Below, piece by piece: positions 5,290 through 29,637 of a stretch of DNA of 64,000 bases; position 1 is the stretch's first letter, and each line of letters opens with the position of its first letter. The notes under the pieces were generated by a model. The model was not told where the DNA came from. It did not search any database and saw only the letters and a list, made by a program, of their open reading frames with translations. A program made the translations under genes and the position numbers. The stretch is from an uncultured Methanoregulaceae archaeon (GTDB lineage: Archaea; Halobacteriota; Methanomicrobia; Methanomicrobiales; Methanospirillaceae). The stretch lies in contig OY970343.1 in assembly GCA_963717525.1 (NCBI GenBank), positions 1,440,001 through 1,504,000 of the forward strand, given 5' to 3'.

Positions 5290-5370
5290 TCTCTTTCTTT
5301 CGGTTTGCGCGGGATCTCCATCATCATGATTTCCCGGAACCCGCATGATCCGGACCGGCCTGCTGCAAAA

Positions 5371-5545
5371 TTTTCAAAAACGTTCGTAAACGCGACGGCT
5401 CTTTTGGAAAAAGTCCGGATACGCTGCCCGAAGATTTCCAAAAATGGCGAGGAGCGATATCGGACATTCAAAAAAAAGTTCGCGAAGGTTGCCGGACTTT
5501 TGTAGAAAAAATCCGGTCATGATCCGGGGATTCCGGGAAAAATCC
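5371..5545. repeat. Degenerate ~32-bp periodic T-tract/A-tract repeat (6 units)
   Basis: A-tracts end at 5380, 5412, 5444, 5477, 5511 and 5542. Each follows a TT-TTTT run and precedes a GC-rich spacer. Confidence 0.55.
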
Positions 5546-6827: not shown

Positions 6828-6941
6828 GGTACTCCTATCTAGAATTCGCCGGTAAACAATATACCCTTGCTTCTCAGATAGGTATGCAAAGGCAACGAGC
6901 CGGAAACCCTTACGAGGTCCGGCCGTCACGGAAATATCGCT

Positions 6942-8048
6942 ATGGACAGAAACGATCCCGCAAAGAGGCCGGGAACCATCACAACCCTACACAAAACGCT
7001 CTGGGCAGAGATCCATACGGAGCGGGAGCGGCACCGCGAGCTGTACGCGTCGGGTACCACCGGCAGGATCACGCTGATCATTCTGGGCGTTGCGATCCTG
7101 ATCAATATCTTCCTGTTCTTTGAAAATCCGCTCTATCCCCTTATGTTTACCTCGGCAAGTTTCTTCCTTTTTATGTTCTATTTTGTTACACTCCTTATCC
7201 CCCACAACCTGAAAGAGACGCCGCTGCCCCAGACAGAGATCTCCCGGTACCTCGTGCGGCTGCGCGAAAACGGTATTATCGTAAGCACCAGGAGGTTCAC
7301 CCGTGTCTTTCTCAATGCCTTTTTTATCAACTGCCGCCCGCTCTTTTACGGGTTTGCACTGATCTTCTCCATCGATATCGTGCTTGTGATCGCGATGGCT
7401 GCACAGGGCGTGCTTTCGTCGTCCAGTACGGTAATAATCCTAATGGAATCAGCTGCCATCATCCTGTTCTACTTCCTTGTCTGGCGACTTGAACCATACA
7501 CCATCGAATTCTTCTCCGGGGTCTCCGGGGTAAAAGAGCGCCTGATCCAAAAACGGGTTCCCGAGCCGGTGGTCTCCTCCCTGTTTTTTTTGAGCGCAGC
7601 ACTCGCCCTTGTCGGTATTCTCTCGACACTTGTTCTGCTCCCGGGCATGTCCGTGAACAATATCCTCTCGGTAACAGAACTAAAACAACTCAGCCATTTC
7701 TTCCTTGCCATCGGTGTGATTCTTATTACCCAGTACTTCATCATGCGCTACATTCACGGTAATACCAGCCGCGATCTGCTCGCACGGTTTTCGCAAGGCA
7801 AGGCTGCCTGTCTCTTCCACCAGATCGAACTTACCGGGCAGACCGGAAGGTCCTCTTCTGGCGCCGCAGACGAGGATGCAGAGGCCGCTGCCGTGTGCAG
7901 GGCCGCAGAACTCCTGCTCGAATCGCAGATCTACCAGGTCGATAAAAAGACACTGTTCGGTACGTTTCCGGTCTATATCGTAAATCCGGATTTTTCCTGG
8001 GTATTTTTCCCTGCTGTGCCTCACGACGGGGAAACACCCCTCGGCTGA
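6942..8048 (+). CDS. Hypothetical multi-pass membrane protein
   Basis: 368-aa ORF with about 6 hydrophobic segments. Confidence 0.7.
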   Translation: MDRNDPAKRPGTITTLHKTLWAEIHTERERHRELYASGTTGRITLIILGVAILINIFLFFENPLYPLMFTSASFFLFMFYFVTLLIPHNLKETPLPQTEISRYLVRLRENGIIVSTRRFTRVFLNAFFINCRPLFYGFALIFSIDIVLVIAMAAQGVLSSSSTVIILMESAAIILFYFLVWRLEPYTIEFFSGVSGVKERLIQKRVPEPVVSSLFFLSAALALVGILSTLVLLPGMSVNNILSVTELKQLSHFFLAIGVILITQYFIMRYIHGNTSRDLLARFSQGKAACLFHQIELTGQTGRSSSGAADEDAEAAAVCRAAELLLESQIYQVDKKTLFGTFPVYIVNPDFSWVFFPAVPHDGETPLG

Positions 8049-8164
8049 TATTCACACCGGTCCCAAGGCCAGCGGCCTGCCCCTCGCTCCGGAGGCAAAA
8101 AGAGAGAAACTACCCCGATTGAACTTTATTTATAGATGGAAAACTCATGTAAAACGTAGTGCCT

Positions 8165-9058
8165 ATGTCAGACGAAATAAAGATCGCAGAGGTGGCGGGA
8201 AAGAAAGTCCAGTGGGATCCTGCGCAGATGCGGAAAATTCAGGAACACCCCTGTTTTTCCGAGAAGGCATGCCATGCCTTCGGGCGCTGTCACATCCCCG
8301 TGGCGCCGAAGTGCAACATCCAGTGTAACTACTGTATCCGGGATTTTGACTGCGTCAACGAGAGCAGGCCCGGTGTGACCACCCGGATCCTCAAGCCGGA
8401 CGAAGCCATGGACATGGTAAAAAAGGTCGTCGATAAATACGACTATATCAAGGTCATCGGCATTGCGGGTCCCGGGGATCCCCTTGCAAACGAGGAGACC
8501 TTCGAGACACTCAAAAGGCTCCACGAGCAATACCCGGGGGTCATCAAGTGCATCAGTACAAACGGCCTGCTCCTGCCTGAAAAGATCGACCTGCTCCAGA
8601 AATATGACGTGGGTAACATCACGGTCACGCTCAACGCGATCGACCCGGAGATCGGGGCGAAGATCTACCAGTTCGTCGATTACCACGGAAAGCGGTACAC
8701 GGGCATCGAAGCGGCAAAGCTGCTCCTCTCGCAGCAACTGAAGGGTATCGAGATGGCAGTGGCACGGCATATGATCGTGAAGATCAATACAGTCTATATC
8801 CCGGGCATCAACGAAGATCATATCATAGACATCGCAAAGAAGGTCGGGGAGATGGGCGTCTATACCTTTAACCTCATCCCGCTGATCGCCCAGTACAAGT
8901 TCGCCGACATCACGCCGCCAACACCCGAGATGAAACGGAAGATGCAGGATGCCTGCTCAAAGTATGTTAAACAGATGCGGCATTGCCAGCGCTGCCGTGC
9001 CGATGCGATCGGCAAGCTCGGGCACGATGTCCAGTCGTGTATGTACGAGAACAAATAA
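8165..9058 (+). CDS. nifB: NifB-type radical SAM protein (FeMo-co precursor synthesis; short form without NifX domain)
   Basis: HPC, CNIQCNYC, ESRPG, AGPGDPL, STNG and C-terminal CQRCRADA, the NifB signature motifs. Confidence 0.92.
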   Translation: MSDEIKIAEVAGKKVQWDPAQMRKIQEHPCFSEKACHAFGRCHIPVAPKCNIQCNYCIRDFDCVNESRPGVTTRILKPDEAMDMVKKVVDKYDYIKVIGIAGPGDPLANEETFETLKRLHEQYPGVIKCISTNGLLLPEKIDLLQKYDVGNITVTLNAIDPEIGAKIYQFVDYHGKRYTGIEAAKLLLSQQLKGIEMAVARHMIVKINTVYIPGINEDHIIDIAKKVGEMGVYTFNLIPLIAQYKFADITPPTPEMKRKMQDACSKYVKQMRHCQRCRADAIGKLGHDVQSCMYENK

Positions 9059-9365
9059 TCTCCATCTCATTTTTCCGGCATAACTTCCTCTGCCGGGGAT
9101 CAACCGGCTGACATGACCGGTGATTTTTCGTGTGCCATTCTTTTTTTGGGGTCCCACAGGAAGTCCTGTGTTCCCTGACCGGATGCTGGTAAATTAACCA
9201 AACGCGAGGGGATGAGATCCCACCCCCCAGTGCCAGGAAACGGAACCGGTCGGAAATGAGAGATAATCCAAAAAAAAGTCCCGGGGACCGGTACCAGTGC
9301 GTTCAGCAGGGGGCGAGAAGTACGTCCCGTTCTCTTCCCTGTATGTCCTGGGATAGTACCGGGAA

Positions 9366-9851
9366 TCAGGGTGAGATCCCAAGGGTCGGATAGGCAGACT
9401 TCTGCGGGCCGGCGTTCCCGAGGATACTGTTCAGTTTATCGATAATCGTCCCGAGTGAAGGGGGGATATCCGTATCCTGGGCAGTCACCGTTTTACCCAT
9501 ATAACTGACTGTATAGGTCATCAGGCCCGGGCTCTGGTGAGGGGCAGGGTAGTTGGCCTGCAGCTGCGAGAACGCTGACTCATTGAACAGCACGGAAATA
9601 AGCGCAAGGTCCGTGGCATTCAGCGATATCTCGGTACTGGTCGATTTCCCGGAGATCACCGCTACCCCGTTATTGAAGATCACCAGGCGATCATTGAGAC
9701 TGGCAACACCGCCGGTCCGGTGGTAATCAACGAGTATTGAAGGCGGAGAGGTTTGGTTGACCGGAAGGGACCTGGTTCCAAGGCACCCGGCACCCGCGAG
9801 TACGAGAACGAGAAGAAAAAGAGGGACGATAGGGATTACTTTAATACGCAT
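9366..9851 (-). CDS. Hypothetical secreted/lipoprotein-like protein
   Basis: Hydrophobic leader ending in AGAGC; YHRTGG motif. Confidence 0.7.
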   Translation of the reverse strand: MRIKVIPIVPLFLLVLVLAGAGCLGTRSLPVNQTSPPSILVDYHRTGGVASLNDRLVIFNNGVAVISGKSTSTEISLNATDLALISVLFNESAFSQLQANYPAPHQSPGLMTYTVSYMGKTVTAQDTDIPPSLGTIIDKLNSILGNAGPQKSAYPTLGISP

Positions 9852-9890
9852 CACTCCGTAGGGTTCACCAGGATTTCCCTTTTTTTTGGG

Positions 9891-10220
9891 TTATAACTGG
9901 ACAACATCCGTTTTTTTGGTTTTTGCTGCCGATTTACGTTCAGGAAAGATTTCCTCAAGGGCTTTTACCAGACTGTCCGCCTTTTCATTGTTGAAAACCG
10001 CACGGAATGCAGCAAGTTCCGTTGCATTCATAATCATGATCCCTTTCTTCTTCATCGGGAGCCTGTTTTCCCCGAGAGGGTTGATATCGATCGCAAGCGA
10101 CGCCGGGCGGTTTTTTGTTGCAGGGAGACGGATGATGGAGACCCCGGCAAGTGTGGTTGCTTTTCGTTCCCAGTCTCCGCCTTCTTCGATAAAGGCCCTG
10201 AGGGTTTCAGTTAATTCCAT
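9891..10220 (-). CDS. Conserved hypothetical protein
   Basis: MELTETLRAF...WERKATT...IDINP; an upstream TATA-like TATATAAA on the minus strand. Confidence 0.7.
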   Translation of the reverse strand: MELTETLRAFIEEGGDWERKATTLAGVSIIRLPATKNRPASLAIDINPLGENRLPMKKKGIMIMNATELAAFRAVFNNEKADSLVKALEEIFPERKSAAKTKKTDVVQL

Positions 10221-10382
10221 GAGAAGAACTGTTAATTTATATATTAAAAGGCTATCCGTTCCATCGTGAAAATAAAAAAAGTCCCGCAATTCCCGGAACA
10301 GGTGATGCCCGCAGAGTCCACGTTATCAGTGCCCGTTATTCTAAAAAGTTTAAAAGCAGATATCTGACCGGACAATTCCATC

Positions 10383-11273
10383 ATGCCAAAGATCACGCTT
10401 CGCCGTAACCAGCCGTTCTCTCTCGACCAGACGCTCGGGTGCGGGCAGGTTTTCCGCTGGGACCGCACGCCGGATGGCGGCTGGTGCGGCGTCGTGGGCG
10501 ACCGGGTGATCCGGTGCCGGCAGAAAGGCGCAACCCTGACCTGCGAGGGCGCGGACGAGACATTTATCCGGCACTATTTCTCCCTTGACCTTGATCTGGA
10601 GGCAATACTGGAATCGATTGACTGCGACCCGTTTATCCATGAAGCGATCGGGCGGTGCAGGGGCCTGCGGCTGGTGCGGCAGCCCGCGTGGGAATGTCTC
10701 TGTTCGTATATCTGCTCAACAAATTCCAACATCCCCATGATTCGGCGCCGGATCGCAACCATTGCGCAGCAGTTCGGCGACGAGACGGGAACGGGAGATG
10801 CGAAGTCCTTTTCGTTTCCCGATCCGTCAAGGATCTCCTGCACCGGGGGATCATCCTCTCTCGCGGAATGCAGGCTCGGGTACCGCACACCGTACGTATT
10901 CAATACGGCCGTGGACGTTGCGGCACGAAGAGACTGGGCAGAACGCATTGCCGCGCTGCCGTACGAGGAGGCCCGCCGGGAGATAATGAAATTCCCCGGT
11001 ATCGGCCCCAAGGCAGCGGACTGTGTCCTGCTCTTTGCATTCCAGAAGTACGAAGCATTCCCGGTCGATGTCTGGATCCGCCGGATAGTACGGGAGCACT
11101 ACCTCCCAGCACTCCCGCAAAACACGGCCCTGACCGGCAGGGAGTACGACGCGATACGCGCCTTTGCCCGAGAGCATTTCGGTAGGTATTGCGGGATTGC
11201 ACAGGAATATATCTACGCTGCGCGGGAAGGTAATAAAGACCTGAGTCGTCCCATATTCATCCCATATGTGTGA
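10383..11273 (+). CDS. ogg1: 8-oxoguanine DNA glycosylase/AP lyase (OGG1-type, HhH-GPD)
   Basis: TLGCGQVFRW, HhH FPGIGPKAADC and FPVDVWI motifs. Confidence 0.88.
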   Translation: MPKITLRRNQPFSLDQTLGCGQVFRWDRTPDGGWCGVVGDRVIRCRQKGATLTCEGADETFIRHYFSLDLDLEAILESIDCDPFIHEAIGRCRGLRLVRQPAWECLCSYICSTNSNIPMIRRRIATIAQQFGDETGTGDAKSFSFPDPSRISCTGGSSSLAECRLGYRTPYVFNTAVDVAARRDWAERIAALPYEEARREIMKFPGIGPKAADCVLLFAFQKYEAFPVDVWIRRIVREHYLPALPQNTALTGREYDAIRAFAREHFGRYCGIAQEYIYAAREGNKDLSRPIFIPYV

Positions 11274-11314
11274 AAACCCGGGCCCCCGGCGTTTTCCCTG
11301 AGATCCTGATATCC

Positions 11315-12223
11315 ATGCAATATCTCCCCTTTCACAAACTGCCAAAACCGGTCATGGCGATCGCAGGTGCTACCATCCTTTTTGGGACGGCAACACCGCT
11401 TTTGAAGATTCTTGTCGACGGGATGGCCCCCCTGTTCCTCATTGCCCTCCTCGCCCTCGGGTCAGGTACCGGCGTACTCAGCTGGCGGATGATGAACGGT
11501 CCCCGCTTACCTGCGACACTGCCTCGTGCCGGTAAGAGGGAGCGGTATCTCCTTGCAGGTACTGTGGTCGTCGGAGGTTTTGTGGCGCCCGTCACCCAGT
11601 GTTTTGCCCTCACCATCACCCCGGCGGCGACTGCGGCGCTTCTCTTAAACTTCGAGATCGTTGCAACCGTCCTGCTTGCGTTCTGGGTCTTCCATGAACC
11701 GGCCGACAAACGGATCGGTTTTGCCCTCATCCTCATCTTTGCCGGGAGCATCCTTCTTGGCTGGAACGGTGAGAGTGCGCTCGGTATTTCCCTGGGAGCG
11801 CTCGGGATCATCCTGTCGGGATTTTTCTGGGGCATAGACAACAACTGCATGGCGCATATCACGGCCTATCCCCCGGAGCTGATCGGGCTGTACAAGGTGA
11901 TCTTTGGCGGGAGCATAGCAGCGGTACTCGTGATCGTGCTCGGGGAGCCCCTGCCGGGTGCAGACCTGATCGTGCTTGCCCTCCTCACCGGGTTCTTCTC
12001 CTTTGGTTTTGGTCTTATCCTGTTTATCGTGGCCCTGCGGGACATGGGTGCGGCACGGGCAGGGGCGATCTACTCGGCAGCCCCCTTTATCGGCTGCATT
12101 GCCTCGCTCTTCATCTTCTCCGATCCTCTCGGAAGCCAGTTCTGGCTTGCCGTGCCCCTTTTTGCCGCAGGGGCGCTGATCGTTATCCGCGAACAATGGA
12201 CACGAAAAACGTTCCCCGAATAA
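11315..12223 (+). CDS. EamA/DMT family transporter
   Basis: About 10 TM segments in two repeats; LLLNFE and FWGIDNN; start uncertain. Confidence 0.85.
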   Translation: MQYLPFHKLPKPVMAIAGATILFGTATPLLKILVDGMAPLFLIALLALGSGTGVLSWRMMNGPRLPATLPRAGKRERYLLAGTVVVGGFVAPVTQCFALTITPAATAALLLNFEIVATVLLAFWVFHEPADKRIGFALILIFAGSILLGWNGESALGISLGALGIILSGFFWGIDNNCMAHITAYPPELIGLYKVIFGGSIAAVLVIVLGEPLPGADLIVLALLTGFFSFGFGLILFIVALRDMGAARAGAIYSAAPFIGCIASLFIFSDPLGSQFWLAVPLFAAGALIVIREQWTRKTFPE

Positions 12224-12358
12224 ACACGATTTGGAGGAAAAGAATAGTAAGAGTTCACTTTTACAGGGACAACGAGATAGCACAATCACCGAATATTTAA
12301 TTTCTCGACAAAGGTAAAAATATAAAAATATTTAAAACATAAAAATTGAATTCAGGTC

Positions 12359-13651
12359 ATGAAAACAGCTGTTTTTCCAATACTCCTTTTTTTGATCCTT
12401 GGTGCAGCGATTATTTTCTCCGGTTGCACGGACAAGGCAGGCCCCTCTCTGCCTCAGAGCCCGGCAACGACAACGCCCGTTCCTCATGTAACGCATCCAG
12501 ATACTTCCAATAACGACATCAGCGTAAGTGATGCAAATACCCGGTTCGCATTTGATCTCTACAAAAAATTAAGTGGTGACCCGGCACATTCCGGAACAAA
12601 CCTTGTCTTCTCACCTTACAGTATTTCCTCGGCAATGGGTGTCATGTACGAAGGGGCACAGGGCCAGACCGCAGATGAGATTCTCTTAGTGTCCCATCTT
12701 CCGGAGAATGATACCATGCGCAGGCAGGAATTTTCCAAAATTTATGAGGATATGAACCATCAGGATGCCAATATTACCGTACTTTGTGCAAATGCGTTAT
12801 GGGTTGAAAAATCATACCCCCTCCTTCCGGAATATACCCAGACCATCCAGCAATATTACTCCACAAACGTAACGAACCTCGATTTTGCGGGCCATCCCGA
12901 TGATGCCAGAATAACGATTAACCAATGGGTTGAAAGTAACACAAATAACAAGATCCATGAGATTATCTCTCCCGGGGATTTAGATGCTCAAACAGCAATG
13001 GTGTTCACAAATTCAGTGTATTTCATGGGTGCCTGGGAATCCCCTTTTGATAAGACACAGACATTTGATACAAATTTTACCATCGCACCGAATACCACCG
13101 TACCTGTGATGATGATGGCTAAAGCAGATTTAACTGCAAATTTCAATTATACAGAAACCGGGGATTTCCAGATGATTGAGATCCCGTACAAATACTCTAA
13201 TGAAACTGCATTATCGATGTTTGTCCTCCTTCCGGTAAACAATAATCTGACCGCCGCAGAGGATACGTTAAGTGCCCCGACCTTTTTAAATATGGAGGAA
13301 AATCTCTCGCGAGAAGAGAAACACCTCTTCCTGCCCAGATTCAGGATTGACACCCGTGAGGATATTTCGGGTACTCTTCAGACAATGGGGATGCCAACAG
13401 TATTTACATCAGGGGCAGATTTCTCTAAAATTACTCCGAATTCCGGGATTTATGTTAAAGAAGTCACCCATGACGCCGAGATTGAGGTAAACGAGGAAGG
13501 CACCGAATCGGCGGCAGCGACACAGTTTATTTACACACTGGGAATAGAACCAAACTTCATTGCCAACCATCCGTTCATCTTTATTGTACAGGACAGGGAA
13601 AACGGCAATATCCTCTTCATGGGGCGCGTGATAAATCCCAATACTACCTAA
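12359..13651 (+). CDS. Serpin (serine protease inhibitor), lipoprotein-like leader
   Basis: NLVFSPYSI, NALW, INQWVE, NSVYFMGAW, hinge EVNEEGTESAAAT and FIANHPFIF...ILFMGRV; leader ends in FSGC. Confidence 0.93.
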   Translation: MKTAVFPILLFLILGAAIIFSGCTDKAGPSLPQSPATTTPVPHVTHPDTSNNDISVSDANTRFAFDLYKKLSGDPAHSGTNLVFSPYSISSAMGVMYEGAQGQTADEILLVSHLPENDTMRRQEFSKIYEDMNHQDANITVLCANALWVEKSYPLLPEYTQTIQQYYSTNVTNLDFAGHPDDARITINQWVESNTNNKIHEIISPGDLDAQTAMVFTNSVYFMGAWESPFDKTQTFDTNFTIAPNTTVPVMMMAKADLTANFNYTETGDFQMIEIPYKYSNETALSMFVLLPVNNNLTAAEDTLSAPTFLNMEENLSREEKHLFLPRFRIDTREDISGTLQTMGMPTVFTSGADFSKITPNSGIYVKEVTHDAEIEVNEEGTESAAATQFIYTLGIEPNFIANHPFIFIVQDRENGNILFMGRVINPNTT

Positions 13652-13671
13652 AAAATAGTTAGTTCGGGGTT

Positions 13672-14898
13672 TTATGTCCCGATATCCCAGCTGCACTGGT
13701 ATTGCTTCTGGGCCGCGGTCAGCTCGTCGATGGTGAGACCAAGCGACGCAAGTTTGAGCCGGGCGACCTGTTCGTCGATCTCCTGCGGGACTTCGTAGAC
13801 CCCGCCCTTAAGGGAATCGCCCTGCTCCGCGATATACCGGGTGCAGAGTGCCTGAAGGGCGAAACTGAGGTCCATGACCTCGACAGGGTGGCCCATGCCC
13901 TTTGGCGTTGCAAGGTTCACGAGCCTGCCCTCGGCGAGAACATGGACCGGTTTTCCCTTGATGATATAGCTGGTAATCCCGTCACGTTCGACTGTCGAAT
14001 CCGCGTGTTTTGCAAGCCACGCAATGTCGATCTCGACATTGAAGTGGCCGGCATTTGCGAGGATCGCACCTGCTTTGAGTTTCCCGAAATGATTCTTTCC
14101 GATTACGCTTGTGTTGCCCGTGGTCGTGACAAAGATATCGCCGATCCCCGCTGCCTCGTCCATGGTCATGACATGGTACCCGTCCATGTGCGCCTCAAGG
14201 GCACGGCGGGGATCCACCTCGGTGACCACGACCTTGGCGCCAAGGCCGTGGGCTTTCTTTGCAAGTCCCCGGCCGCAGTAACCGTACCCGGCAACAACGA
14301 AGTATTTGCCGGCGATAAGCGTATTTGTGGTGATCATAAGAGAGGAGAGCACACTCTCCCCGGTCCCGTGCACGTTGTCAAAGAACCGTTTCATCGGCGT
14401 GTCGTTGACCGCAACAACGGGAAACTCGAGTTTTTTCTCTGCCGCCATCGCACGGAGCCGGTGGATGCCGGTTGTAGTCTCCTCACAGCCACCGATCACT
14501 TTCTTGAGCATCTCGCGGCGTTTGGTGTGCAGGTAATGGATGAGGTCCATCCCGTCGTCTATCGTGATGGACGGAGCGGCATCAAGCACCTGTTCGATCG
14601 CCACGTAGTACTCCCCGATAGTGCACCCGCGCTTTGCGTAGCAGTGGACGTTTTTTACCTCGTTCAATGCCTCTGCCACATCGTCCTGCGTCGAGAGCGG
14701 GTTGCAACCGGTGATGTAGACCTTTGCACCCCCGGCAGCGAGCGTCTGGACGAGGTTTGCCGTCTTTGCCTCCACATGGAGGGCCATGCCGATCGTCATG
14801 CCCTTGAAGGGCTTGTCCTTCTCGAACTGTTTTCTGATGGAGGCAAGCACGGGCATGTACTGTGCTGCCCAGTCAATCTTCAGCTTCCCGGTACTCAT
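13672..14898 (-). CDS. ahcY: Adenosylhomocysteinase family (SAH/S-inosylhomocysteine hydrolase)
   Basis: LHVEAKT, CNPLSTQD, DDGMD, EETTTG, FDNVHGTG, GYGYCGRG and EGRLVNL. Confidence 0.95.
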   Translation of the reverse strand: MSTGKLKIDWAAQYMPVLASIRKQFEKDKPFKGMTIGMALHVEAKTANLVQTLAAGGAKVYITGCNPLSTQDDVAEALNEVKNVHCYAKRGCTIGEYYVAIEQVLDAAPSITIDDGMDLIHYLHTKRREMLKKVIGGCEETTTGIHRLRAMAAEKKLEFPVVAVNDTPMKRFFDNVHGTGESVLSSLMITTNTLIAGKYFVVAGYGYCGRGLAKKAHGLGAKVVVTEVDPRRALEAHMDGYHVMTMDEAAGIGDIFVTTTGNTSVIGKNHFGKLKAGAILANAGHFNVEIDIAWLAKHADSTVERDGITSYIIKGKPVHVLAEGRLVNLATPKGMGHPVEVMDLSFALQALCTRYIAEQGDSLKGGVYEVPQEIDEQVARLKLASLGLTIDELTAAQKQYQCSWDIGT

Positions 14899-15048
14899 GA
14901 AAAACACCTGTGCAGTACCCCGCATGAGGCAGGTACCGCCCGACAACGTACCCGGTACATAAGGTGATGATGGCACATAAACTTCCCCTCGAAGGGAGGG
15001 GTGCTGGCAGATAGGTAAATAGCACTTGCGGGAGAAAACAAGAATGAA

Positions 15049-20216: not shown

Positions 20217-21224
20217 TCAGAGTTTTATCCGGGCGAATTCGACGAACTGGATTCCGGTAGTATGTACACAGCCAAACAACATCTTCTTTTTGACACTGTG
20301 CGCCATCCTGACCGACCGGGAGATGACGCTCATGGGAAGGTCTGCCTCTTTTTCTATCGCATGCACCAGCATGTCGGAGTGAACATTCTTTCCGCAGTAA
20401 ACGCGGTAGTGATGGCCGAACTTATAACCGGTCCGGGGAATAAAATCGTGCCGGCGCAGCTCGGTATAGACCTTGTCTTTTGCGGCAAGATCCTGGTCGC
20501 TCCCGCTTGCGAATGCGAAAAACTCCTGAGGGGTCAGCGGGGCGCCGTCTTTTGAGACCCGGATCGTTCCTTCGCCCATCAGGTACAGAAGTTCGACCGG
20601 CGAGATCATCAGCCGTTCTTCATCGAACCGTTTCCCGAAACCGGCCTTCTCAAGGTCGGACCCCGGGGGTACCAGGATCATCGCAGACTTGCCCACCAGC
20701 ACCGCATCGCAGGAACCGATTTCGGAGGGTGCACAGGCACCGGTCAGTTTCTGGAGCTTGATCTCGTAATAGGTCAGTTCCTCTTCATCATCGACAACTG
20801 CAAGGACATACTGCTTGCGCATGTTCCGTGCAGTGATCACTTCCTCAATCAGTTTGGTAAACCGGATCGGGTCGCGTTCCGAAAGGACGCGGACGAGGTA
20901 CAGCGACTCCCCGGTCCCCGGCTTTTCTCCGCGCCGGAATACCCGGTAATCGTGGGGGCCGGTCTGGACGACATACCCGCGTTCCCGCAGGTCGCGGTAG
21001 ACAAGAAAACTGCGCAGGAAGTTGCGCTGGTCCGCATATTCGGCAAGGAGCGTATCGAACGTATAGTCAGAAATCTCTATCCTGTGGCGGTGGAGCAGGT
21101 ACAGGGCCTCCTGCGGCGCAAGGCGTATTCCATCGCCTTCGGGCCGCCCGTACCCGCTCTGGTCGTACAGCACCCGCCCGTCCCTGCCGGTCAGCACCGA
21201 AGTGCCTTCAACTGTCGCCTTCAC
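20217..21224 (-). CDS. endA: tRNA-splicing endonuclease (euryarchaeal homodimeric type, two repeats)
   Basis: VYRDLRERG in repeat 1; TGYKFGHHYRVY, HS and RMAHSVKK catalytic Y/H/K in repeat 2. Confidence 0.92.
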   Translation of the reverse strand: MKATVEGTSVLTGRDGRVLYDQSGYGRPEGDGIRLAPQEALYLLHRHRIEISDYTFDTLLAEYADQRNFLRSFLVYRDLRERGYVVQTGPHDYRVFRRGEKPGTGESLYLVRVLSERDPIRFTKLIEEVITARNMRKQYVLAVVDDEEELTYYEIKLQKLTGACAPSEIGSCDAVLVGKSAMILVPPGSDLEKAGFGKRFDEERLMISPVELLYLMGEGTIRVSKDGAPLTPQEFFAFASGSDQDLAAKDKVYTELRRHDFIPRTGYKFGHHYRVYCGKNVHSDMLVHAIEKEADLPMSVISRSVRMAHSVKKKMLFGCVHTTGIQFVEFARIKL

Positions 21225-21553
21225 TGCTGGATCTATTGTTGCCGAAGTGTTATAAGAGCACGGGAAAACGGGACCCGGTCCAGCGCGCGTCCCCCTAGCC
21301 CCTGATCGAAATCCTTATGAATGGCAAAAGTCCGGAACAATGCCTATTAAATGGTAAAAATCGAACCTGTATAGTCAGATTGTATCTCATAAGTATGCTT
21401 ATTTGCACGTCCCCGAGGGTGGTTTTCATTCCGGGAATATTCGGGTAATACTATAAGGTACATCGATCACCCACACCGGAATCATTTCAGCAGCCAATAC
21501 GTAGTGGCGGAAAAATGATGGTGCATCAGACGAACGACCACGGATACCGACGC

Positions 21554-22156
21554 ATGAGTGAGCTCAACCTCGCAGGTTTTCTCGCGAGGTCAGCCGCAAA
21601 CGGGCCCGGCATCCGGGCCGTCATCTGGGTGCAGGGGTGCCCGATCCGGTGTAAGGAGTGTTTCAACCCGGCGTTCTGGTCCTTTTCTCCGGTCAACAGG
21701 GTTTCTGCAGGCGAGATTTCCGGCCGGATCCTTGCTCTCAAGGATATCGACGGGGTCACGTTCTCCGGAGGAGAGCCCTTTGCACAGGCAGACGCACTTG
21801 CATCTGTGGGAGAAAAGGTGCAGGAAGCGGGGTATACGGTCGTGACCTATACGGGCTACACGCACGAACAACTCACCTCAAATAATAATCCTGCCTGGGA
21901 CCGGCTCCTGGGGGTCACTGACCTCCTCATCGCTGGCCCGTATATTGGATCCCAAGCCTGCGACAAACCGTACATCGGGTCCTCGAACCAGCAGGTCATC
22001 TCCCTGACCGGAAGAGTCCGCACGGATGTCCCGGACAGACAAGCGCATGGTGAGATCGTTGAATTTTCCATTGCTCCCGGCGGCATGGTCACAACCACCG
22101 GTTTTCCCCGGGAACACATGGTCCGGCAGATCGCCGCCCGTTGCCGGGGAGAGTGA
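21554..22156 (+). CDS. NrdG/anaerobic RNR-activase-like radical SAM protein
   Basis: ANGPGIRAVIWVQGCPIRCKECFNP (CxxxCxxC), GVTFSGGEPF, YTGY, DLLIAGPY and GSSNQ. Confidence 0.88.
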   Translation: MSELNLAGFLARSAANGPGIRAVIWVQGCPIRCKECFNPAFWSFSPVNRVSAGEISGRILALKDIDGVTFSGGEPFAQADALASVGEKVQEAGYTVVTYTGYTHEQLTSNNNPAWDRLLGVTDLLIAGPYIGSQACDKPYIGSSNQQVISLTGRVRTDVPDRQAHGEIVEFSIAPGGMVTTTGFPREHMVRQIAARCRGE

Positions 22157-22160
22157 TACC

Positions 22161-22559
22161 ATGTCGCATTTCAGCCGTATCAGGACAACATTCCGGCGGC
22201 GCGAGGCGCTGATCCAGTGCATGCAGGAGCTTGGCTATACGGTCGAGACTGATACGACAATCACGGGATACCACGGCCAGCATAACGTGGATATTGCCGT
22301 GAAAAAATCCGGGAGGTACTGCCTCGGCTTCGTGGAGAACCCTGAAGGCACGTACGACATGGTAGCGGACTGGTGGGGCATTTCGGGAAAAGGCGAGAAG
22401 AAAATCGCCGAAGAACTGAACCATCAGGCAGAGACCATCCAGAAAGAATACGCAAAAAAAATAGTGCTCGAACAGACAGCCGCGGACGGCTTTGACCTTG
22501 TCTCGGAGACCGAAGAGAACGACGGGACCGTGCGGATTGTTGTCAGGAGGTGGAAGTAG
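22161..22559 (+). CDS. DUF1257 (Ycf35-like) protein
   Basis: MSHFSRIRT start, GF...GTYDMVADWW, and Y...GF...E..DGTVRIVVRRW C-terminus typical of DUF1257. Confidence 0.85.
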   Translation: MSHFSRIRTTFRRREALIQCMQELGYTVETDTTITGYHGQHNVDIAVKKSGRYCLGFVENPEGTYDMVADWWGISGKGEKKIAEELNHQAETIQKEYAKKIVLEQTAADGFDLVSETEENDGTVRIVVRRWK

Positions 22560-22562
22560 GCT

Positions 22563-24123
22563 ATGCAACTTACCGAACCCGATTTCTCCCGCAGGCTGAA
22601 TGTCTCGCTTCGGGCCCGGGTCACCCTGATTGTCGTGATTACCCCGGAAGAAGAGAGGGTGGTATCGCAAATCCGGGAGGTCTGCGAGAGATGGGATCCT
22701 CCCCGTCAGTGCATTGCGTGGGACAGCGTGGATGGTTTTTCCATTATCGTCGGCAATAAAGATTTCCTGAACCAGTCGCGGGACCCGCTTACAGCTCTCG
22801 ACGACATAGCGAAGACCGGGGAGGATGCCGTCATCATCCTCAAAGACTTTCACGAGTACCTGGAACAACCCGCAGGTGAAAAGACGGATCCGCAACTCCT
22901 CGCAGGCATTCCGTTACAACCGGCGCACGATCGTGATCGTGACCCCGACACCCAAGGTACCGGATGAGATCCGCGACGAAGCGGTAATCGTGCATTTTCC
23001 CCCACCAACGGCAGCCGAACTCTCTGCCGATCTCGACAACCTGCTTACCACAAGCGGCATTTCCTGTTCGCTCTCCCCTGCCGGCCGGGAAAAGATCATC
23101 CAGGCAGCCATTGGTATGACCCTCAATCAGGCACGCCGGGCATTCTCGAAAGCTATCGTCACCCATGGTACGCTTGACGACCGGGATATCGATGCGATCA
23201 TCGCAGACAAAAAAGATATTCTGAGGGCCTCGGACGCGCTGGAGTTTTACAGTTATACCGAGGCCCCGGAGAACGTCGGGGGCCTTGCAGTCCTCAAGGA
23301 CTGGCTCTCCCTGCGTGAGCGGGCGTTCACGCAGGATGCGCGCGACTTCGGGCTCCCGGCGCCGAAAGGTATCGCGTTGATTGGCATCCCGGGCACGGGC
23401 AAGAGCCTCACGGCAAAGATGATCGCCGACCTCTGGCACCTGCCCCTGCTCAGGCTTGACGTGGGGGCGCTCTTTGGCAGCCTTGTAGGCGAATCCGAGG
23501 AGAGGACGCGCCGCGCTCTCTCGCTTGCGGAGACGATCAGCCCATGCATCCTCTGGGTGGACGAGATCGAGAAAGCGTTTGCGTTCGGCAGCGGGGATGC
23601 CGGCACGAGCCAGCGGGTCTTTGCCCACCTCCTCACCTGGATGCAGGATAAGACCTCCCCCTGTTTTGTGGTAGCGACCGCGAACAACATCGCTGCCCTC
23701 CCGCCGGAACTGCTGCGGAAGGGCCGCTTCGACGAGATCTTCTTCCTCGATCTGCCCACCATTGAGGAACGGCGCGAGATCTTTACCGTGCACCTCAAGA
23801 AGCGCAAGTGCATCCCCGCGGAGTTCGACCTCGACACTCTTGCACAGAAGAGCGAGGGCTACGTGGGCGCCGAGATCGAGCAGACGATCATCGACGCGAT
23901 GTACCGCGCGTTCAGCGAGAACATGCGCCGGGTCACGACCACTGACATCCTTTTCTGCATGAAGACGCAGGTCCCCCTCTCAGTCTCGCAGCGAGAGACG
24001 GTGGCAACCCTCCGGGCCTGGCTTGCGGAGGGGCGGGCGCAGTCCGCATCGCGGACAGCCACGCCATCTTCGGGGAACGGGAGAGCGATTGCGCTGGAGA
24101 CCTTCGACACAGGGCGCCCGTGA
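22563..24123 (+). CDS. Ycf46-like AAA+ ATPase (apparent +1 frameshift near 22860)
   Basis: N-domain TPEEERV...LKDFH; VGGLAVLKDW, Walker A GIPGTGKS, Walker B WVDEIEK and ATAN...LPPELLRKGRFDEIFF. Removing one C at about 22860 joins HEY to WNNPQVKRR. Confidence 0.9.
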
Positions 24124-24129
24124 GCCTCT

Positions 24130-26936
24130 ATGAAGATTGCCCCCACATTTCCGGTCATCGGCCCCTTGTTCTACCGGCGTTCGGTCAAGGTGATTGCGGG
24201 GGCTGTGAAAAAAGGGGACCTGCAGGCAGTCCGGGAACTGATCGCTATTGCCAGAGCGGGGCCTGATGCGCCTGCGCGGGCGATCGCGTTCGATGCCCTG
24301 GATACCCTTTCATCGCAGGACGCTGATCGATGTGTTCTGCGGGGAGGTGCTGCTCCAGGAAGACCCGGCACTTGAAAAAATTGCCACCAGCCGGGGATAT
24401 CTCCCCTCGGAGCCGGGATTCGCGGCGCTCTTTTTGTATATCACCGGGCAGGACGAGGCATTGTGCCGGTTTGATCCCGACAGCCATCATCCCATGCTCT
24501 CCCGAGGGTATGCTGCGGCACCGGATGGGATCAAAGCCCGGGCGCTCCACCGGGCCTCCGATACCCGCATGGGCAGGATTCTTGCACATGCACTGATCGG
24601 GACGGACCCGGTCCGGGCTGCCGGAACATGGTCGTATGGCGAGTGGGAGACGGTCATCTCCAGCCTGACGGACGAGGGGGCGTGGGACGTGCTGTGGCTG
24701 CTGGTCGTTTCCGCGCCCCCGTCACTCGCGGTCGCGGCCCTGAACGCCATGAAGGTGGCCGGCTGGAGACCGGGGGGTGACGGGATGCAGGTCTTCCGCG
24801 AACTGGTCCGCGAGCTGCCGGAAGCATGGGCGTATCCGGCGCCTGAAAAACCCCTCCTCTCCATGGGGAACCAGGACAGCCAGTGCCTGATACTTGCATT
24901 CTCCCGCGACGGCACACTTCTTGCCTCCGGCGACTGCGACGGGAGAATTGCAATCTGGCAGCGCTCATCAGCCCGGCTCATTACATCCATTACAACAAAT
25001 GCCGGTTCCATCGGCTTTCTTGCATTCGCAGCAGATAACTCGTACCTGGTTTCAGGAGGGAACAACGGGAAGCTTACCTGCTCTGGCATTCCCTTGGGAA
25101 ACACGATCTGGTCGTACGCGGACGAAAGCCACCCGGTTTCCTGTGCTGCAATGTTGGGTAACGGAGAGGAGCTGATTGCCGGTGATGATCGCGGAGGGAT
25201 GATCCGCATCGGGTGCCGGACAGGTAAAACCCTGCTCGCGGTACCAGGGCACCCGTCCAAAGTCACCTCCCTTTCCCCTGCTCCGGACGAAAAAAGCATC
25301 GCTTTTGGCCACGCTGACGGGACCACCCGTTGCCGGGACATCTTAACCGGGGGAGAGAGATGGACCGTGCCGGGCACCGGTGACGCGGTCAGGGCACTTG
25401 CACGCACAGGACAGGATGATCAGGTGTATGTGGTTTATGAACGTTCCCTCCCCGTACTCAGGGACGGGGGCACCGGTGTGCCGGTGCGGACATACACCGG
25501 GTTCTCCGGTCATCCTGCCTGCCACGCGATATCGGCAGAAAATTCTCTGGCCGCAATCGGCAGCGATGATCATGTACTCCGGCTCTGGAACTGGCAGGAG
25601 AAGAACCCGGCAACAGAAATTCCCTTCTACAACCGCCTTCCGACATGCTGTGCCCTGACACCTGACGGGAAACTGGCCGCTGCCGGCTGCAACGAGGGCA
25701 CGATATACTATTTCAGTGTTCCCGAAGGGCGGCGGATAAAAGAATTCCGGGGATACAGGCAGGCAGTCACTGCCTGTGCCATCTCTCCGGACGGCAAGAT
25801 TCTTGCTACCGCGGGAGGAGATGGCACCGTGACACTCCGGGGCATTCCCTCCGGGGAACTCCTCCGGACGCTCACGAGCCCCGCCGGTGCAGTAACCGCC
25901 CTTGCCCTCACCTCCGGTTCGGGTGGCACCGGGATAGTTGCCGGGACTGCTGATGGCAGGGTCCGCATCTTCTCCCAAAAAGACGGCACGCTTGTCAGAT
26001 CCATCGATGTGTACACGCCATCGGTCAGGGCCCTTGCGGTCAGTCCTGACGGGATATACCTTGCCTGTGCCGGGAAAGACCCCAGCCTCCGCATCTGGGA
26101 ACTTGCAGAGGGGGGCCTTGTGGCCACGTGCGAAACTCTCACTACCACCGTCCGGTGCCTCGCCTTCCTGCCGGATACAGCCGCATGCATCTCCTGCGGC
26201 TGGGACGGGGTGGTAAGAATCTGGGATGTGCCGGGCGGGAAACTGACGGGGACACTGTCCGGGCATTCAAGCATCATCACCTGCTGCTGCGTTGATCCCA
26301 GAGGGCGCCTTCTTGTCACCGGGAGTAACGACACGACCCTGCGAATCTGGCAGCGGACCGGTGAAAACAAGAGTGTCGTTCTTGAGGAGGCAAAACATGA
26401 GGTGAGCGCCTGCGCGATCTCACCGGATGGCACCCTCCTTGCCGCCGCAGGCACAGACCCCGTGCTCCGGCTGTACCATCTGCCGGAGGGGACTGCTGCC
26501 GGGACGATCCCCCAGATCCCGGGAAGACCAACTGCTCTCGTGTTCACCGATGACGGGCTCGCGATCGCGGCTGGATATGACCATGGCACCCTCGCGTTCT
26601 ATGCTCTCCACGGGCACTTCCTGATCCGGGCCCTGCCCGCCCATGCAGGCGCCGTCACCGGGATCGTTTCCATAAGGGGCGAAGACTGCATCGTTACCAG
26701 CGGTACTGACGGGATGATCCACATCTTCCGGGTCCCTTTCATGCGGCCTCTGTCACAAACTACCCTTGCAGACCTTGCTTTCGCACAGGAACAGGAAACA
26801 GCCGCAGGTACAGGATGCCATGGCTGAACAGTGGAGGTTTCTCTGCCACCTGCTGTCCATCCGGTTCCAGAACGAGATCGAACTCTGCCCGGCATACCGC
26901 GATGCCGGAGTGTACGACATCCAGATCGTCGGGTGA
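24130..26936 (+). CDS. Large WD40-repeat protein (helical N-domain plus about 13-14 WD repeats; frameshifts near 24325 and 26810)
   Basis: Repeated AFSRDG/ISPDG...A.G..DG...IW(D) units. The N-terminus starts in ORF 24130-24375 and the C-terminus continues in another frame to RFQNEIELCPAYRDAGVYDIQIVG* (TGA 26934-26936). Confidence 0.85.
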
Positions 26937-26941
26937 TCCCC

Positions 26942-28564
26942 GTGGACAGGTACGCACATTCCCTCCAACCGGCAGTTCGTCTCGGGGTAGACTTCGGAAC
27001 CGGAACGCTTGTCATCGGCATCACGGGACAGGATGGCAAAGGGTACCGTACGCTGGAGTTCCCCGGCTGGTCGCGGGAAATGCCCGGCACAGGAGCCGGC
27101 GGACCGGTGCACGCAGTACCGGTGTTGATCCATTACGACGAGAAAGGGAACAGGACCATTGGCAACGAAGTGGTGCGTGCGGGTGATTCCGATCACCCCC
27201 GGACGGCGCGATGGATCCGGAAATACCTGCTGGAGGAAAGCCCGGTGCGGATCCCGGCCGGTCCGGATCGCCGTATCACGTTCCGCGATGCGGCAACGGA
27301 TTTCCTCACCGCCGTCCTTACCCGCGCAATACGGGAGTACCCCGGGTGCTCTTCGGTTGTCTTTGCCATTCCCAAGGATGTTCCTGAATGGTATACCGGA
27401 TGGCTTGGGAGCATTGCCGATGCTGCAGGCATCAGGTCCTGGCACACGCTTGCCGAACCTGCTGCCGTGGTTGCCGGGTACGGGCTGTCTCCCGAAGCGG
27501 GGCAGGGGTATCTCATCATCCGCTGGGACGAGACGGACTTTTCGGCGTCCTTTATCCTGTCTGAAGGAGCATCGGACCAGTGCCCTGCCGGGGGCCCGCG
27601 GGTGACCGGTACGGCCTGCGATGATACAGGATGCAAGGCTATCGATGGCTGGATCGCACAGGATGTGCTCGCCCGGAACCACATGATGCACAGGGGACCA
27701 AAAACACAGAGGATACATGATAAAATCACCGGAAGGATTGGGGAGCTGTACAGCCAGCTGGCAGCAGCAGATGAGGCCATCATCGGGATCGAAGATCCGC
27801 TTTCCGGAACCACCTTCCCTGCCCGGCTATCACGGGATGATGTTGGCCGGATCCTGACGGAGCACGGGTTTTTGTCAGTCTTTGACCGTACAATCGGCCG
27901 TGCACGTGCAGCTGCCATATCCCGCGGGTGCAAAGAGGTACTGCCCGTCGCCGTCATTATGACCGGCCAGGGGTGTGCGATACCTGCTGTCGAGGATCTC
28001 ATAAAAAAGCAGTTTGAAGGCGTGCCGGTCCTGTCCGATCACCCGCTCGATGCCGTTGCCCGCGGGGCTGCGCTTTTCCTACCCCATGCGAGCCGGACTG
28101 ACCGGATCAAAAACGACTATGCGCTCCGGTACTGGGATTCCAAAAGCCGGGAGCACCGGTTCCGGTTCCTTGTGCGCAGCGGGGCCCTGTACCCGAGCGC
28201 CGGCCAGGTAGCCCGTATCACCATCAGCGCCGCGTACGATGGCCAGACCCGGCTCGGCATCCCCCTGTTCGAGATCAGCAACTCGGCGGATGCGCAGGCG
28301 CCTGCCCTTGAGCTGGTGTCGGACCCTGCCGGGGGGATCCGTCTCGCCATACCACCGGGAGATGCCGGTACCGGGAGCAGGCCGCTTTTGGCAAACGAGC
28401 GGACTCCTACGCTGCTCGCCGCTGACCCGCCGGCACTGAAAGGCGAACCACGGTTCGAACTGACGTTCACGCTCGACCGGGAAAAACAACTGCGTGTCAC
28501 GGCACGCGACCTTGTGACCGGCATGCTCGTGAAAAAGGATGCACCGGTGCACAGGCTGACCTGA
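26942..28564 (+). CDS. Divergent Hsp70/DnaK-like protein
   Basis: LGVDFGT, AEPAA, PLDAVARGAA and an SBD-like FELTFTLDREKQLRVTARDLVTG; GTG start just after the WD40 stop. Confidence 0.82.
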   Translation: MDRYAHSLQPAVRLGVDFGTGTLVIGITGQDGKGYRTLEFPGWSREMPGTGAGGPVHAVPVLIHYDEKGNRTIGNEVVRAGDSDHPRTARWIRKYLLEESPVRIPAGPDRRITFRDAATDFLTAVLTRAIREYPGCSSVVFAIPKDVPEWYTGWLGSIADAAGIRSWHTLAEPAAVVAGYGLSPEAGQGYLIIRWDETDFSASFILSEGASDQCPAGGPRVTGTACDDTGCKAIDGWIAQDVLARNHMMHRGPKTQRIHDKITGRIGELYSQLAAADEAIIGIEDPLSGTTFPARLSRDDVGRILTEHGFLSVFDRTIGRARAAAISRGCKEVLPVAVIMTGQGCAIPAVEDLIKKQFEGVPVLSDHPLDAVARGAALFLPHASRTDRIKNDYALRYWDSKSREHRFRFLVRSGALYPSAGQVARITISAAYDGQTRLGIPLFEISNSADAQAPALELVSDPAGGIRLAIPPGDAGTGSRPLLANERTPTLLAADPPALKGEPRFELTFTLDREKQLRVTARDLVTGMLVKKDAPVHRLT

Positions 28565-28581
28565 TACAAGGAGGAAAAAAT

Positions 28582-28785
28582 ATGGAAATGCAGGAACTGG
28601 AGATCACAATCGATAAGGAAGGCAGAATACAGGTTAAAGTGAACGGGGCGCACGGTGCTGACTGCCTTGCGATGACCAAAAACCTCGAGGAGGCCGCAGG
28701 AGTTGTGGAGGAGCGGGCCTTTTCACCGGCGTACTACGAACAACCGATGCATGAAGAGCATTATACCTGTATCCGGCGATACTAA
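28582..28785 (+). CDS. DUF2997 small protein
   Basis: ITIDKEGRIQVKVNGAHGADCLAMTKNLEE...AYY pattern; RBS GGAGG upstream; co-occurs with DUF1257 and AAA. Confidence 0.85.
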   Translation: MEMQELEITIDKEGRIQVKVNGAHGADCLAMTKNLEEAAGVVEERAFSPAYYEQPMHEEHYTCIRRY

Positions 28786-28791
28786 AGAAAA

Positions 28792-29637
28792 TTACCGGGC
28801 AAGGTTCCGCACGGCCTGGATGTTGCCCCGGTCATCCCTCCGGTCATCCACCGGTGTCTCGCAGATCAGCGGCAGGCGGGCAAAGGCCGGGTGATGGAGG
28901 ATACGCCGGAATCCGTCCTCCCCGATGAACCCCATGCCGATATGCTCGTGACGGTCAAGGCCACTCCCTAGATCGCCCTTGGTGTCGTTGGCGTGGATCA
29001 CCTTCAGCCGATCGATACCCACAGTCTCATCCAGCTGTGCGAGCGTGGCGGCAAGACCTGCTTCTGTCCGCAGCTCGTACCCGGCGGCAAACGCGTGGCA
29101 GGTATCAAAACAGATACCTATCCTATTGGATTTTTCTATCCCGTCGATGATCCCCTGAATGTGCTCGAAACTGCTGCCCACACTGTTCTTCTCTCCGGCG
29201 GTATTTTCCAGCAGTAGCATGACGTTCGAATCAGGCGATTCAAGCGCCATATTCACCGCTTTTATCACCCGGGCCCTGCCTCCCGCGATCCCGTCCCCGA
29301 GGTGATGACCGAGATGGGTGACAAGACAGGGTATGCCAAGACGCCCGCACCGGTCAAGCTCGGCCTGAAGCGTCTGGACAGACTTTTCCCATATGTCTGA
29401 CTTGGGAGACGCAAGATTGGGGAGGTAAGGCATGTGGTCGACCGGAAGGAGGCCGGTCGTTGTAATTTTCTGCCGGAAAAGGGTGCAGTCAGCATCAGTC
29501 AGGGGCCTGAATCCCCACCCCCGGGGGTTGCGCGAGAACATCTGGAAGACATCGCAGCCGGCGTCCTTTGCCCGGTCGACCGCGAGATCGATAGAGCCGG
29601 CGATCGATACATGCACGCCAACCTTTACCTGTGCCAT
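28792..29637 (-). CDS. nfo: Endonuclease IV (AP endonuclease)
   Basis: GVHVSIAG, HMPYLPNL, LENTAG, DTCHAF, HANDTK, DRHEHIG and CETP. Confidence 0.94.
   Translation of the reverse strand: MAQVKVGVHVSIAGSIDLAVDRAKDAGCDVFQMFSRNPRGWGFRPLTDADCTLFRQKITTTGLLPVDHMPYLPNLASPKSDIWEKSVQTLQAELDRCGRLGIPCLVTHLGHHLGDGIAGGRARVIKAVNMALESPDSNVMLLLENTAGEKNSVGSSFEHIQGIIDGIEKSNRIGICFDTCHAFAAGYELRTEAGLAATLAQLDETVGIDRLKVIHANDTKGDLGSGLDRHEHIGMGFIGEDGFRRILHHPAFARLPLICETPVDDRRDDRGNIQAVRNLAR

Follow-up and report, generated by a model that had tools for sequence, protein, structure and literature searches.

A conserved six-gene operon of a Methanoregula-like methanogen that may encode a regulated protein-complex remodelling machine

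Introduction

What might a radical S-adenosylmethionine (SAM) protein, a DUF1257 protein, an AAA+ ATPase, a large WD40 protein, an Hsp70-like protein and a DUF2997 protein do together when their genes stand in single file in a methanogen? The question is raised by a 64,000-nucleotide stretch of contig OY970343.1 (assembly GCA_963717525.1, positions 1,440,001 to 1,504,000), referred to here as the window, in which the six genes lie between endA and nfo. The genome to which the window belongs is one contig of 2.29 Mb, is 87% complete, and the window homologues bear Methanoregula names; the host is a Methanoregula-like methanogen from soil. As judged by sequence comparison, the six-gene set is an intact, conserved operon. 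We tentatively propose, with a conviction that stops a little short of even, that it encodes a regulated, ATP-driven machine for remodelling protein complexes in stress or growth arrest. This proposal rests on the gene set and its conservation, the active motifs of the AAA protein, the loss of a motif from the Hsp70-like protein, and an operator that tracks a regulator gene.

An intact operon kept in archaea and bacteria

Annotation of open reading frames (ORFs) and Pfam domains confirmed six co-oriented, tightly packed ORFs between endA and nfo (Table 1), with Pfam E-values of 9e-30 for Fer4_12, 2e-21 for DUF1257, 3e-29 for AAA plus AAA_lid_3, 4e-70 for WD40 and 5e-14 for DUF2997. With extra bases removed, the intergenic gaps in order along the operon measure 4, 3, 6, 5 and 17 bp; an alternative GTG start of the Hsp70-like gene at 26933 would overlap the stop of the WD40 gene. 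The radical SAM start had previously been placed at 21554, an ATG that is not conserved among 13 aligned promoters, in which the start at 21515/21518 is conserved. Three single surplus bases, at 22859, 24323 and 26812, break the reading frames. Because near-identical contigs from four studies lack them, these breaks are probably assembly errors: bases 22859 and 24323 are absent from the contigs of all four runs (one per study), base 26812 is absent from the three runs that cover the site, and one contig spanning the entire stretch differs by 21 substitutions and exactly those three gaps. After base removal, the AAA protein has 519 amino acids (aa) and the WD40 protein 934 aa, matching the relative L016.

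The AAA gene was found in 14 of 36 genomes of the genus (first draw) and in 47 of 117 genomes of the family, from 7 of its 15 genera, the family set comprising 116 genomes at least 90% complete together with the host genome. DUF1257 occurs in 10 of 301 genomes of the phylum, nine of which belong to the family. All six genes stand in the same order in 11 of the 14 genus loci; of the remaining three, one is cut by a contig end, one shows no Hsp70 above the gene display cut-off of 38% identity, and one, in genome G014, carries a deletion. Seven of nine further archaeal loci likewise hold all six genes, and the other two end at contig edges. The archaeal loci examined showed no GrpE gene. endA adjoins 13 of the 14 genus loci and 7 of the 9 further ones, and the endA-side site is constant across several Methanoregulaceae genera. 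In three of five operon-free genomes endA and nfo lie about 300 bp apart, two of these three retaining the operator described below, which points to loss rather than gain. A constant housekeeping site and losses at that site fit a stable cellular role. The deletion in G014 (L024, G014:C32, 9139-11434) is internal and leaves no WD40 gene and just a minor part of the Hsp70 gene; in the same genome, the match to the regulator described below is interrupted by an in-frame stop.

For bacteria, four of the 64 parts of a genome collection were scanned and the best 80 loci taken: two from Methanoregula, 15 bacterial sister loci with an AAA protein 53-63% identical, and 63 others. The sister loci belong to Chloroflexota, Planctomycetota, Cyanobacteriota, Streptomyces and Elusimicrobiota. 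All six families, in reshuffled order, were present in 8 of the 15 sister loci versus 1 of the 63 other Ycf46 loci, and several bacterial copies also carry GrpE and one more helical/WD40 gene. L081 and most loci that hold only the core lack the radical SAM gene. In an AAA tree, the methanogen and bacterial clades are joined at 100% support in the Shimodaira-Hasegawa-like approximate likelihood ratio test (SH-aLRT); this quick tree of 61 chosen rows, with SH-aLRT support only and a midpoint root, is unrooted in substance and carries no claim on the direction of transfer. Thus, the radical SAM, WD40 and Hsp70 genes do stand beside the DUF1257/AAA/DUF2997 core elsewhere, in eight sister loci and in several Methanoregulaceae genera, and the archaeal and bacterial loci together bear out the view of an earlier sequence-only reading that the six genes are one conserved unit.

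The AAA gene was also found in 25 viral loci, in 5 of which DUF1257 or DUF2997 adjoins it. None of the 25 gave an Hsp70 or WD40 match, and viral scans with DUF1257 and Hsp70 alignments confirmed nothing. A 244-kb viral contig groups radical SAM, AAA, DUF1257 and DUF2997 genes (L035:5733-10546). In L030, L040, L052 and L053 the viral AAA gene precedes a gene for a 250-350-aa protein with no Pfam match, and several such downstream proteins end in R-x-(I/L)-D-L, resembling the C-terminus of the AAA protein itself. Two archaeal loci (L123:9376-16215 and L148:929-5105), one of them named Hodarchaeota, show DUF1257-DUF2997-AAA followed directly by Mre11/Rad50-like genes; L123 additionally has a radical SAM gene. 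In Rivularia and Argonema (L151, L154, L156-L159), a cyanobacterial AAA-DUF1257x2-Hsp70-GrpE-like-DUF2997 cluster continues into STM4011-4015-like genes, two for radical SAM proteins, one sulfatase-like and one for an ATP-grasp protein. Up to eight proteins per genome in these cyanobacteria match an N-terminal Y-D-A-V-L-G-G motif exactly, ahead of leucine-rich (LRR), WD40, tetratricopeptide (TPR) or pentapeptide repeats.

A lidless Hsp70 with a predicted peptide ligand

The Hsp70-like gene falls under the Pfam cut-off (HSP70, E 0.008), and its identity was obtained from an alignment profile against the PDB (best match DnaK, E 1e-41) and from a fold search (DnaK, E 1e-28), the matches of which include 6sr6. 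The model combines the actin-like nucleotide-binding domain and the beta substrate-binding domain that define the fold family, and the best NCBIfam match is a weak one to HscA. The alpha-helical lid is missing, the model ending in beta strands at residue 538. All 15 bacterial copies have the phosphate-2 motif D-x-G-G-G-T, as do 2 of 5 copies from other genera and none of the 14 Methanoregula copies; it is missing in the window. Identity among the Methanoregula proteins is 0.37 in the nucleotide-binding domain versus 0.61 in the C-terminal domain, and among the bacterial proteins 0.57 versus 0.54. The nucleotide-binding motifs have decayed and the C-terminal beta domain is conserved, with the ATPase motif lost from all 14 Methanoregula copies.

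The large protein had been described as a WD40 scaffold. What is conserved in it is a system-specific helical domain and a tail, the propeller being optional: the helical domain is present without propellers in L093 and L100. The tail consists of a helix, R-F-x-x-x-I and then G-x-Y-D-I-Q-I, a pattern conserved across 37 aligned proteins. Its matches in five whole genomes are confined to operon proteins, and none was found in other proteins of the host genome. The WD40 and Hsp70 genes are the fastest evolving of the operon, with mean identities of 42-44% versus 81% for the AAA gene. The cyanobacterial Y-D-A-V-L-G-G motif was considered as a relative of the tail and set aside, the likeness being one seen by eye and the tail profile not matching those proteins.

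To examine the two partners together, the complex of the window Hsp70 with its 40-residue tail was predicted, each supplied as a 30-row alignment, together with three controls. The Hsp70-tail pair scored 0.69 versus 0.00 for the best control, on a scale whose mark 116 of 157 solved complexes attain, as do 2 of 215 mismatched pairs; contact agreement across the Hsp70-tail runs was at least 73% and the partner predicted local distance difference test (pLDDT) at least 53. In the model, tail residues 29-40 contact Hsp70 residues 395-441, with tail D35-I38 lying against I428, S429, A431, Y397 and W398. By DnaK numbering, this stretch corresponds to the DnaK substrate cleft, and the tail of the WD40 protein is accordingly predicted to dock in the substrate cleft of the lidless Hsp70. 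The sequence-only reading had assigned to WD40 and Hsp70 the recognition of a client. The fold is present, but because the ATPase motif is lost in Methanoregula and the cleft is predicted to hold the WD40-protein tail, the Methanoregula Hsp70, as modelled, is likelier to be a tether than a chaperone that recognises clients.

An ATPase with intact motifs and its partners

In the AAA protein, Walker A, Walker B and the arginine finger are intact, and the N-terminal half has no P-loop. The protein aligns over its full length to cyanobacterial homologues (41-45% identity), and the best NCBIfam matches are to the Cdc48/FtsH-like class. We take the protein to be of the Ycf46 family, a name that comes from no hidden Markov model (HMM) match: it has one active AAA module behind a non-catalytic N-terminal half, its length is about 500 aa, and DUF1257 and DUF2997 neighbour it, as expected for the Ycf46 type. 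At its C-terminus (window 24079-24099), a hydrophobic-x-L-(D/E) motif is kept in most of the clade and could, from its sequence, be a second docking peptide.

The DUF1257 model has a mean pLDDT of 82 and gave no Foldseek match at E <=0.001. A KA1 domain was considered for it and rejected, the best VIA-align match (Z 7.3, root-mean-square deviation 3.1, 78 aligned) lying within the ordinary range. Matches of DUF1257 and DUF2997 in the ESM Atlas were all below 0.9, and the two proteins do not align to each other. DUF1257 has an invariant N-terminal His and DUF2997 an invariant Cys. The radical SAM protein had been called an NrdG-like activase, of which the Fer4_12 fold and the CxxxCxxC motif, invariant in 18 of 18 sequences, are retained. 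However, the protein scores below every activase cut-off (95.6 bits versus 126.1 for the NrdG/glycyl-radical activase), and no glycyl-radical enzyme was found in the operon or by a crude motif scan of the ORFs of the host genome, itself 87% complete. A C-terminal hairpin, additional to what NrdG and the glycyl-radical activases possess, weakly resembles the N-terminus of DUF2997.

A likely dedicated regulator

Upstream of the operon, copies of an 18-bp palindrome with the consensus GTAWTMC-WTAW-GKAWTAC accompany a TATA-like box (Table 1), and a weak third site lies near 21434-21451. The operator is present in 22 promoters of the family, on which its matrix was trained. Between relatives, identity is 85% over 21371-21420 versus 37% over 21261-21300, and the placement of site B, judged by its position, would be of the repressor type. 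A structured RNA leader or riboswitch was considered and found no support: there was no Rfam match, and 4 of 25 predicted pairs showed two-sided change, with a covariation term of -0.35. The conservation of the leader is better explained by a protein-binding operator. Scans for sigma-70 promoters and terminators stayed at chance levels, with a model unsuited to an archaeon.

The top operator match in the host genome lies 5' of a 104-aa regulator gene (G000:C1:2102488-2102802), about 640 kb off and outside the window. In a held-out test, 16 of 22 distinct regulator loci scored at least 15, versus 6 of 2165 host genes; the regulator promoters were not in the training set of the matrix, two loci lacking upstream sequence were omitted, and the loci of two distant paralogues were not found. 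Operon-free genomes account for four of the six low-scoring regulator loci. In G109, the regulator is divergent and adjoins the radical SAM gene. Over the 117 family genomes, 44 have both the AAA gene and the regulator, 3 the AAA gene only, 6 the regulator only and 64 neither. JGI names the homologues Arc/MetJ-type ribbon-helix-helix proteins; the regulator gave no Pfam match over the cut-off, and its weak PDB matches include EndoAI, NikR, ORF56 and a CopG protein. On these comparisons, the palindrome is the predicted binding site of the Arc/MetJ-type regulator, a small DNA-binding protein that is retained or lost together with the operon and is its likely controller. The extra operator matches in five complete genomes precede different genes in each, so that they reveal no wider regulon.

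Several regulator copies lie elsewhere. A second, shortened one with its own operator sites is found away from the pgk locus (G000:C1:1659778-1660074; L164:4779-5075). In L219 (G025:C7:72000-91999, at 5010-15003), a distant paralogue, which has an operator-like site, is convergent with a cousin cluster that encodes small proteins besides large HEAT/coiled-coil ones, a 682-aa AAA protein and a Fer4_12 radical SAM protein of the same type. L220 (G019:C4:97000-116999) is an integrase region with a regulator paralogue, DnaJ-TPR, DO-GTPase2 and two Hsp70 genes, one of them vWA-fused; by analogy, it resembles the GTPase conflict systems of Kaur et al. (see Discussion), here in a methanogen.

Table 1. 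Features of the operon and its surroundings (window positions).
Feature	Position	Strand	Remarks
endA	20217-21224	-	upstream flank of operon
Operator site A, 18-bp palindrome	21308..21325	.	matrix score 15.5
TATA-like box, likely operon promoter	21345..21352	+	conserved AT-rich block, 13 aligned promoters
Operator site B, just 3' of TATA-like box	21382..21399	.	matrix score 14.5
Fer4_12 (NrdG-like) radical SAM protein, 213 aa	21515..22156	+	Pfam; CxxxCxxC intact
DUF1257 (Ycf35 family), 132 aa	22161..22559	+	Pfam
Ycf46-type AAA+ ATPase, 519 aa	22563..24123	+	Pfam, motifs; extra base at 22859
Helical-repeat + WD40 protein, 934 aa	24130..26936	+	Pfam, alignment; extra bases at 24323, 26812
Conserved tail of the WD40 protein	26814..26936	+	predicted ligand of Hsp70 substrate cleft
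Lidless Hsp70-like protein, 540 aa	26942..28564	+	PDB profile, fold search
DUF2997, 67 aa	28582..28785	+	Pfam; invariant G-x-x-C cysteine
nfo	28792-29637	-	downstream flank of operon

Elsewhere in the window, a gene for a serpin whose N-terminus bears a hydrophobic leader lies at 12359-13651 (Pfam E 2e-108), and a 584-aa protein-kinase-like gene with a weak Pfam match at 51514-53268.

Discussion

Two known systems bear on the remodelling proposal. We presume that slr0376 is the DUF1257 protein of its cyanobacterial group. The cyanobacterial and plastid groups of Ycf46, Ycf35 and DUF2997 (slr0373-slr0374-slr0376; Synpcc7942_0416-0418; DUF2997-ycf35-fed7) hold the same three families with an iron-sulfur (Fe-S) protein alongside (PMC13683863, PMC4284462 and PMC7283877). 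According to PMC13683863, the S. elongatus ycf46 operon, which contains a CopG-like gene, is (p)ppGpp-dependent and goes up when growth stops and ribosomal genes fall; its CopG-like regulator parallels the Arc/MetJ-type regulator here. Unlike the cyanobacterial genes, the AAA protein studied here falls in another clade of the tree, and its operon additionally encodes radical SAM, tailed helical/WD40 and lidless Hsp70 proteins. The second system is the Ssz1/Zuo1 pair of the ribosome-associated complex (RAC), with its LP pseudo-substrate: Ssz1 is a lidless, non-hydrolysing Hsp70 whose cleft takes a partner peptide (PMC7083937), and the Hsp70 here has no lid, is not expected to hydrolyse ATP and is predicted to take a partner peptide likewise. 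RAC, however, is eukaryotic and ribosome-bound and has a J-domain partner, whereas the partner here is a helical/WD40 protein and no J-domain occurs among the six genes. By analogy, the operon would work like Ssz1-Zuo1, yet it is not a member of the RAC family.

Among the alternatives, the one that survives best, though we consider it unlikely, is a conflict (defence) system in which the variable repeat protein would detect a protein of an invader, with Hsp70 and AAA fixing the threshold and the radical SAM protein or the ring acting as effector. It draws on the patchy presence of the operon in the family, the fast evolution of the WD40 and Hsp70 genes, the swapping of partner domains (FGE-sulfatase domains in L093 and L109), the similar N-terminal motif shared by cyanobacterial LRR, WD40, TPR and pentapeptide proteins, and the carriage of the core by viruses. 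Moreover, Kaur et al. (2020) described conflict systems with Hsp70 and GrpE, namely GAP1-N2 and DO-GTPase systems with HSP70/GrpE, as well as MoxR-vWA ternary systems (PMC7159879). Such NTP-dependent systems share with the operon an NTPase core and variable repeat or FGS partners, whereas the operon has no GTPase, MoxR or vWA; in the main text of PMC7159879, to which this count is confined, 'Ycf' is absent and 'WD40' occurs once. Against defence stand the endA-side site fixed across genera and the lack of a nuclease, a toxin or a membrane effector among the six genes. In addition, the operon proteins match PADLOC 2.0.0 generically, as AAA (IetA, TRIP13) and WD40 and with no system-specific model, and just 7 of 88 flanking proteins have PADLOC matches at 1e-10; a transporter and a DEAD helicase are the two that come from the window, and three of the bacterial matches are possible defence genes. 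Of the two roles suggested by the sequence-only reading, quality control and conflict, the latter thus receives little support from gene context.

That the radical SAM protein is instead the business end, with the machine installing or sensing an Fe-S cluster or a radical on a partner and AAA and Hsp70 serving as assembly factors, seems to us improbable. The ferredoxin gene fed7 beside cyanobacterial DUF2997-ycf35 (PMC4284462) would suit such a role, as would the invariant CxxxCxxC, the invariant DUF2997 Cys and DUF1257 His, and the weak HscA match of the Hsp70. Nevertheless, neither the operon nor the crude scan of the host genome yielded a glycyl-radical enzyme, and the radical SAM gene itself is dispensed with in L081 and most core-only loci.

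DnaK, GrpE and DnaJ act with ClpB, an Hsp70 system paired with an AAA+ ATPase. The operon likewise sets an Hsp70 beside an AAA+ ATPase, with GrpE in several bacterial copies, and could on this basis be a spare disaggregase for general misfolded proteins; we regard this as very improbable. The Methanoregula Hsp70 lacks the lid and the ATPase motif, there is no J-protein in the operon, the AAA protein is of another class (Cdc48/FtsH-like by its best NCBIfam matches) and three extra partners are present. Furthermore, two complete dnaK clusters lie elsewhere in the host genome. Finally, the notion of an operon in decay in this strain, or of a cluster that arose by chance, to which the three frame breaks and the deletion in G014 might lend colour, is scarcely credible, being refuted at species level by the near-identical contigs of other studies and opposed by a gene content kept across domains of life.

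The proposal of a remodelling machine has points of its own against it. In pore loop 1 of the AAA protein, 19 of 25 clade sequences have Leu/Ile and 4 of 25 Phe/Tyr (2 unmatched); the window sequence is S-L-V-G, lacking the aromatic residue of classic threading AAA proteins of the Cdc48/PAN/FtsH type, which weakens the case for a classic threading motor. The likeness of the hairpin to DUF2997 is weak (E 4e-4, probability 35%). Solved Hsp70-peptide complexes exist, so that the predicted fit may reflect memory and passing the mark shows likeness rather than binding; the controls, moreover, included no other hydrophobic peptide. The stress data derive from a cyanobacterial clade that is about 42-45% identical and for the most part without the extra genes. 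G014 retains a partly deleted operon, and hence the operon is not always lost whole. As to the regulator, the co-occurrence counts come from kin, are not independent and overstate the significance; it was not found in G135 or in four other system-bearing genomes; and its fold assignment rests on JGI names and weak PDB matches, four of six of them ribbon-helix-helix (E 0.16-0.8).

For a remodelling machine, the following workings may be envisaged. A dedicated ribbon-helix-helix repressor would likely hold the operon off until stress or growth arrest. The helical/WD40 protein is predicted to insert its tail, with the acidic-hydrophobic Y-D-I-Q-I, into the lidless Hsp70 at the cleft, much as the LP motif of Zuo1 docks in Ssz1. 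In bacteria, the ATP/GrpE cycle of Hsp70 could make this hold on the tail reversible; in Methanoregula, it may be a fixed tether. The variable propeller might pick the target, and DUF1257 and DUF2997 might serve as adaptors of the AAA ring, which would pry the target apart. The radical SAM protein, docked through its DUF2997-like hairpin, could act as an Fe-S sensor or a radical source.

A more specific formulation, possible but rather doubtful in our judgement, would be an undescribed machine shared across domains of life, in which a lidless Hsp70 serves as a peptide-gated socket, interchangeable helical/repeat receptors plug in by a short tail, and the Ycf46 ring with Ycf35, DUF2997 and the radical SAM protein dismantles the receptor-held cargo, for growth arrest or defence and under its own ribbon-helix-helix regulator. 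No published description of the six-gene system was found in a literature search confined to open-access text without supplements, such as those of PMC7159879, in which a neighbourhood of this kind could be listed. Cyanobacteria and red-lineage plastids retain Ycf46 and Ycf35, which have been linked to carbon limitation and growth arrest, with no mechanism given in the source passages. The operon names likely partners of both, and it presents an Hsp70 shifting from enzyme to scaffold inside one archaeal family. If true, the peptide-gated socket machine would provide the mechanism so far lacking for Ycf46 and Ycf35 of plastids and cyanobacteria.

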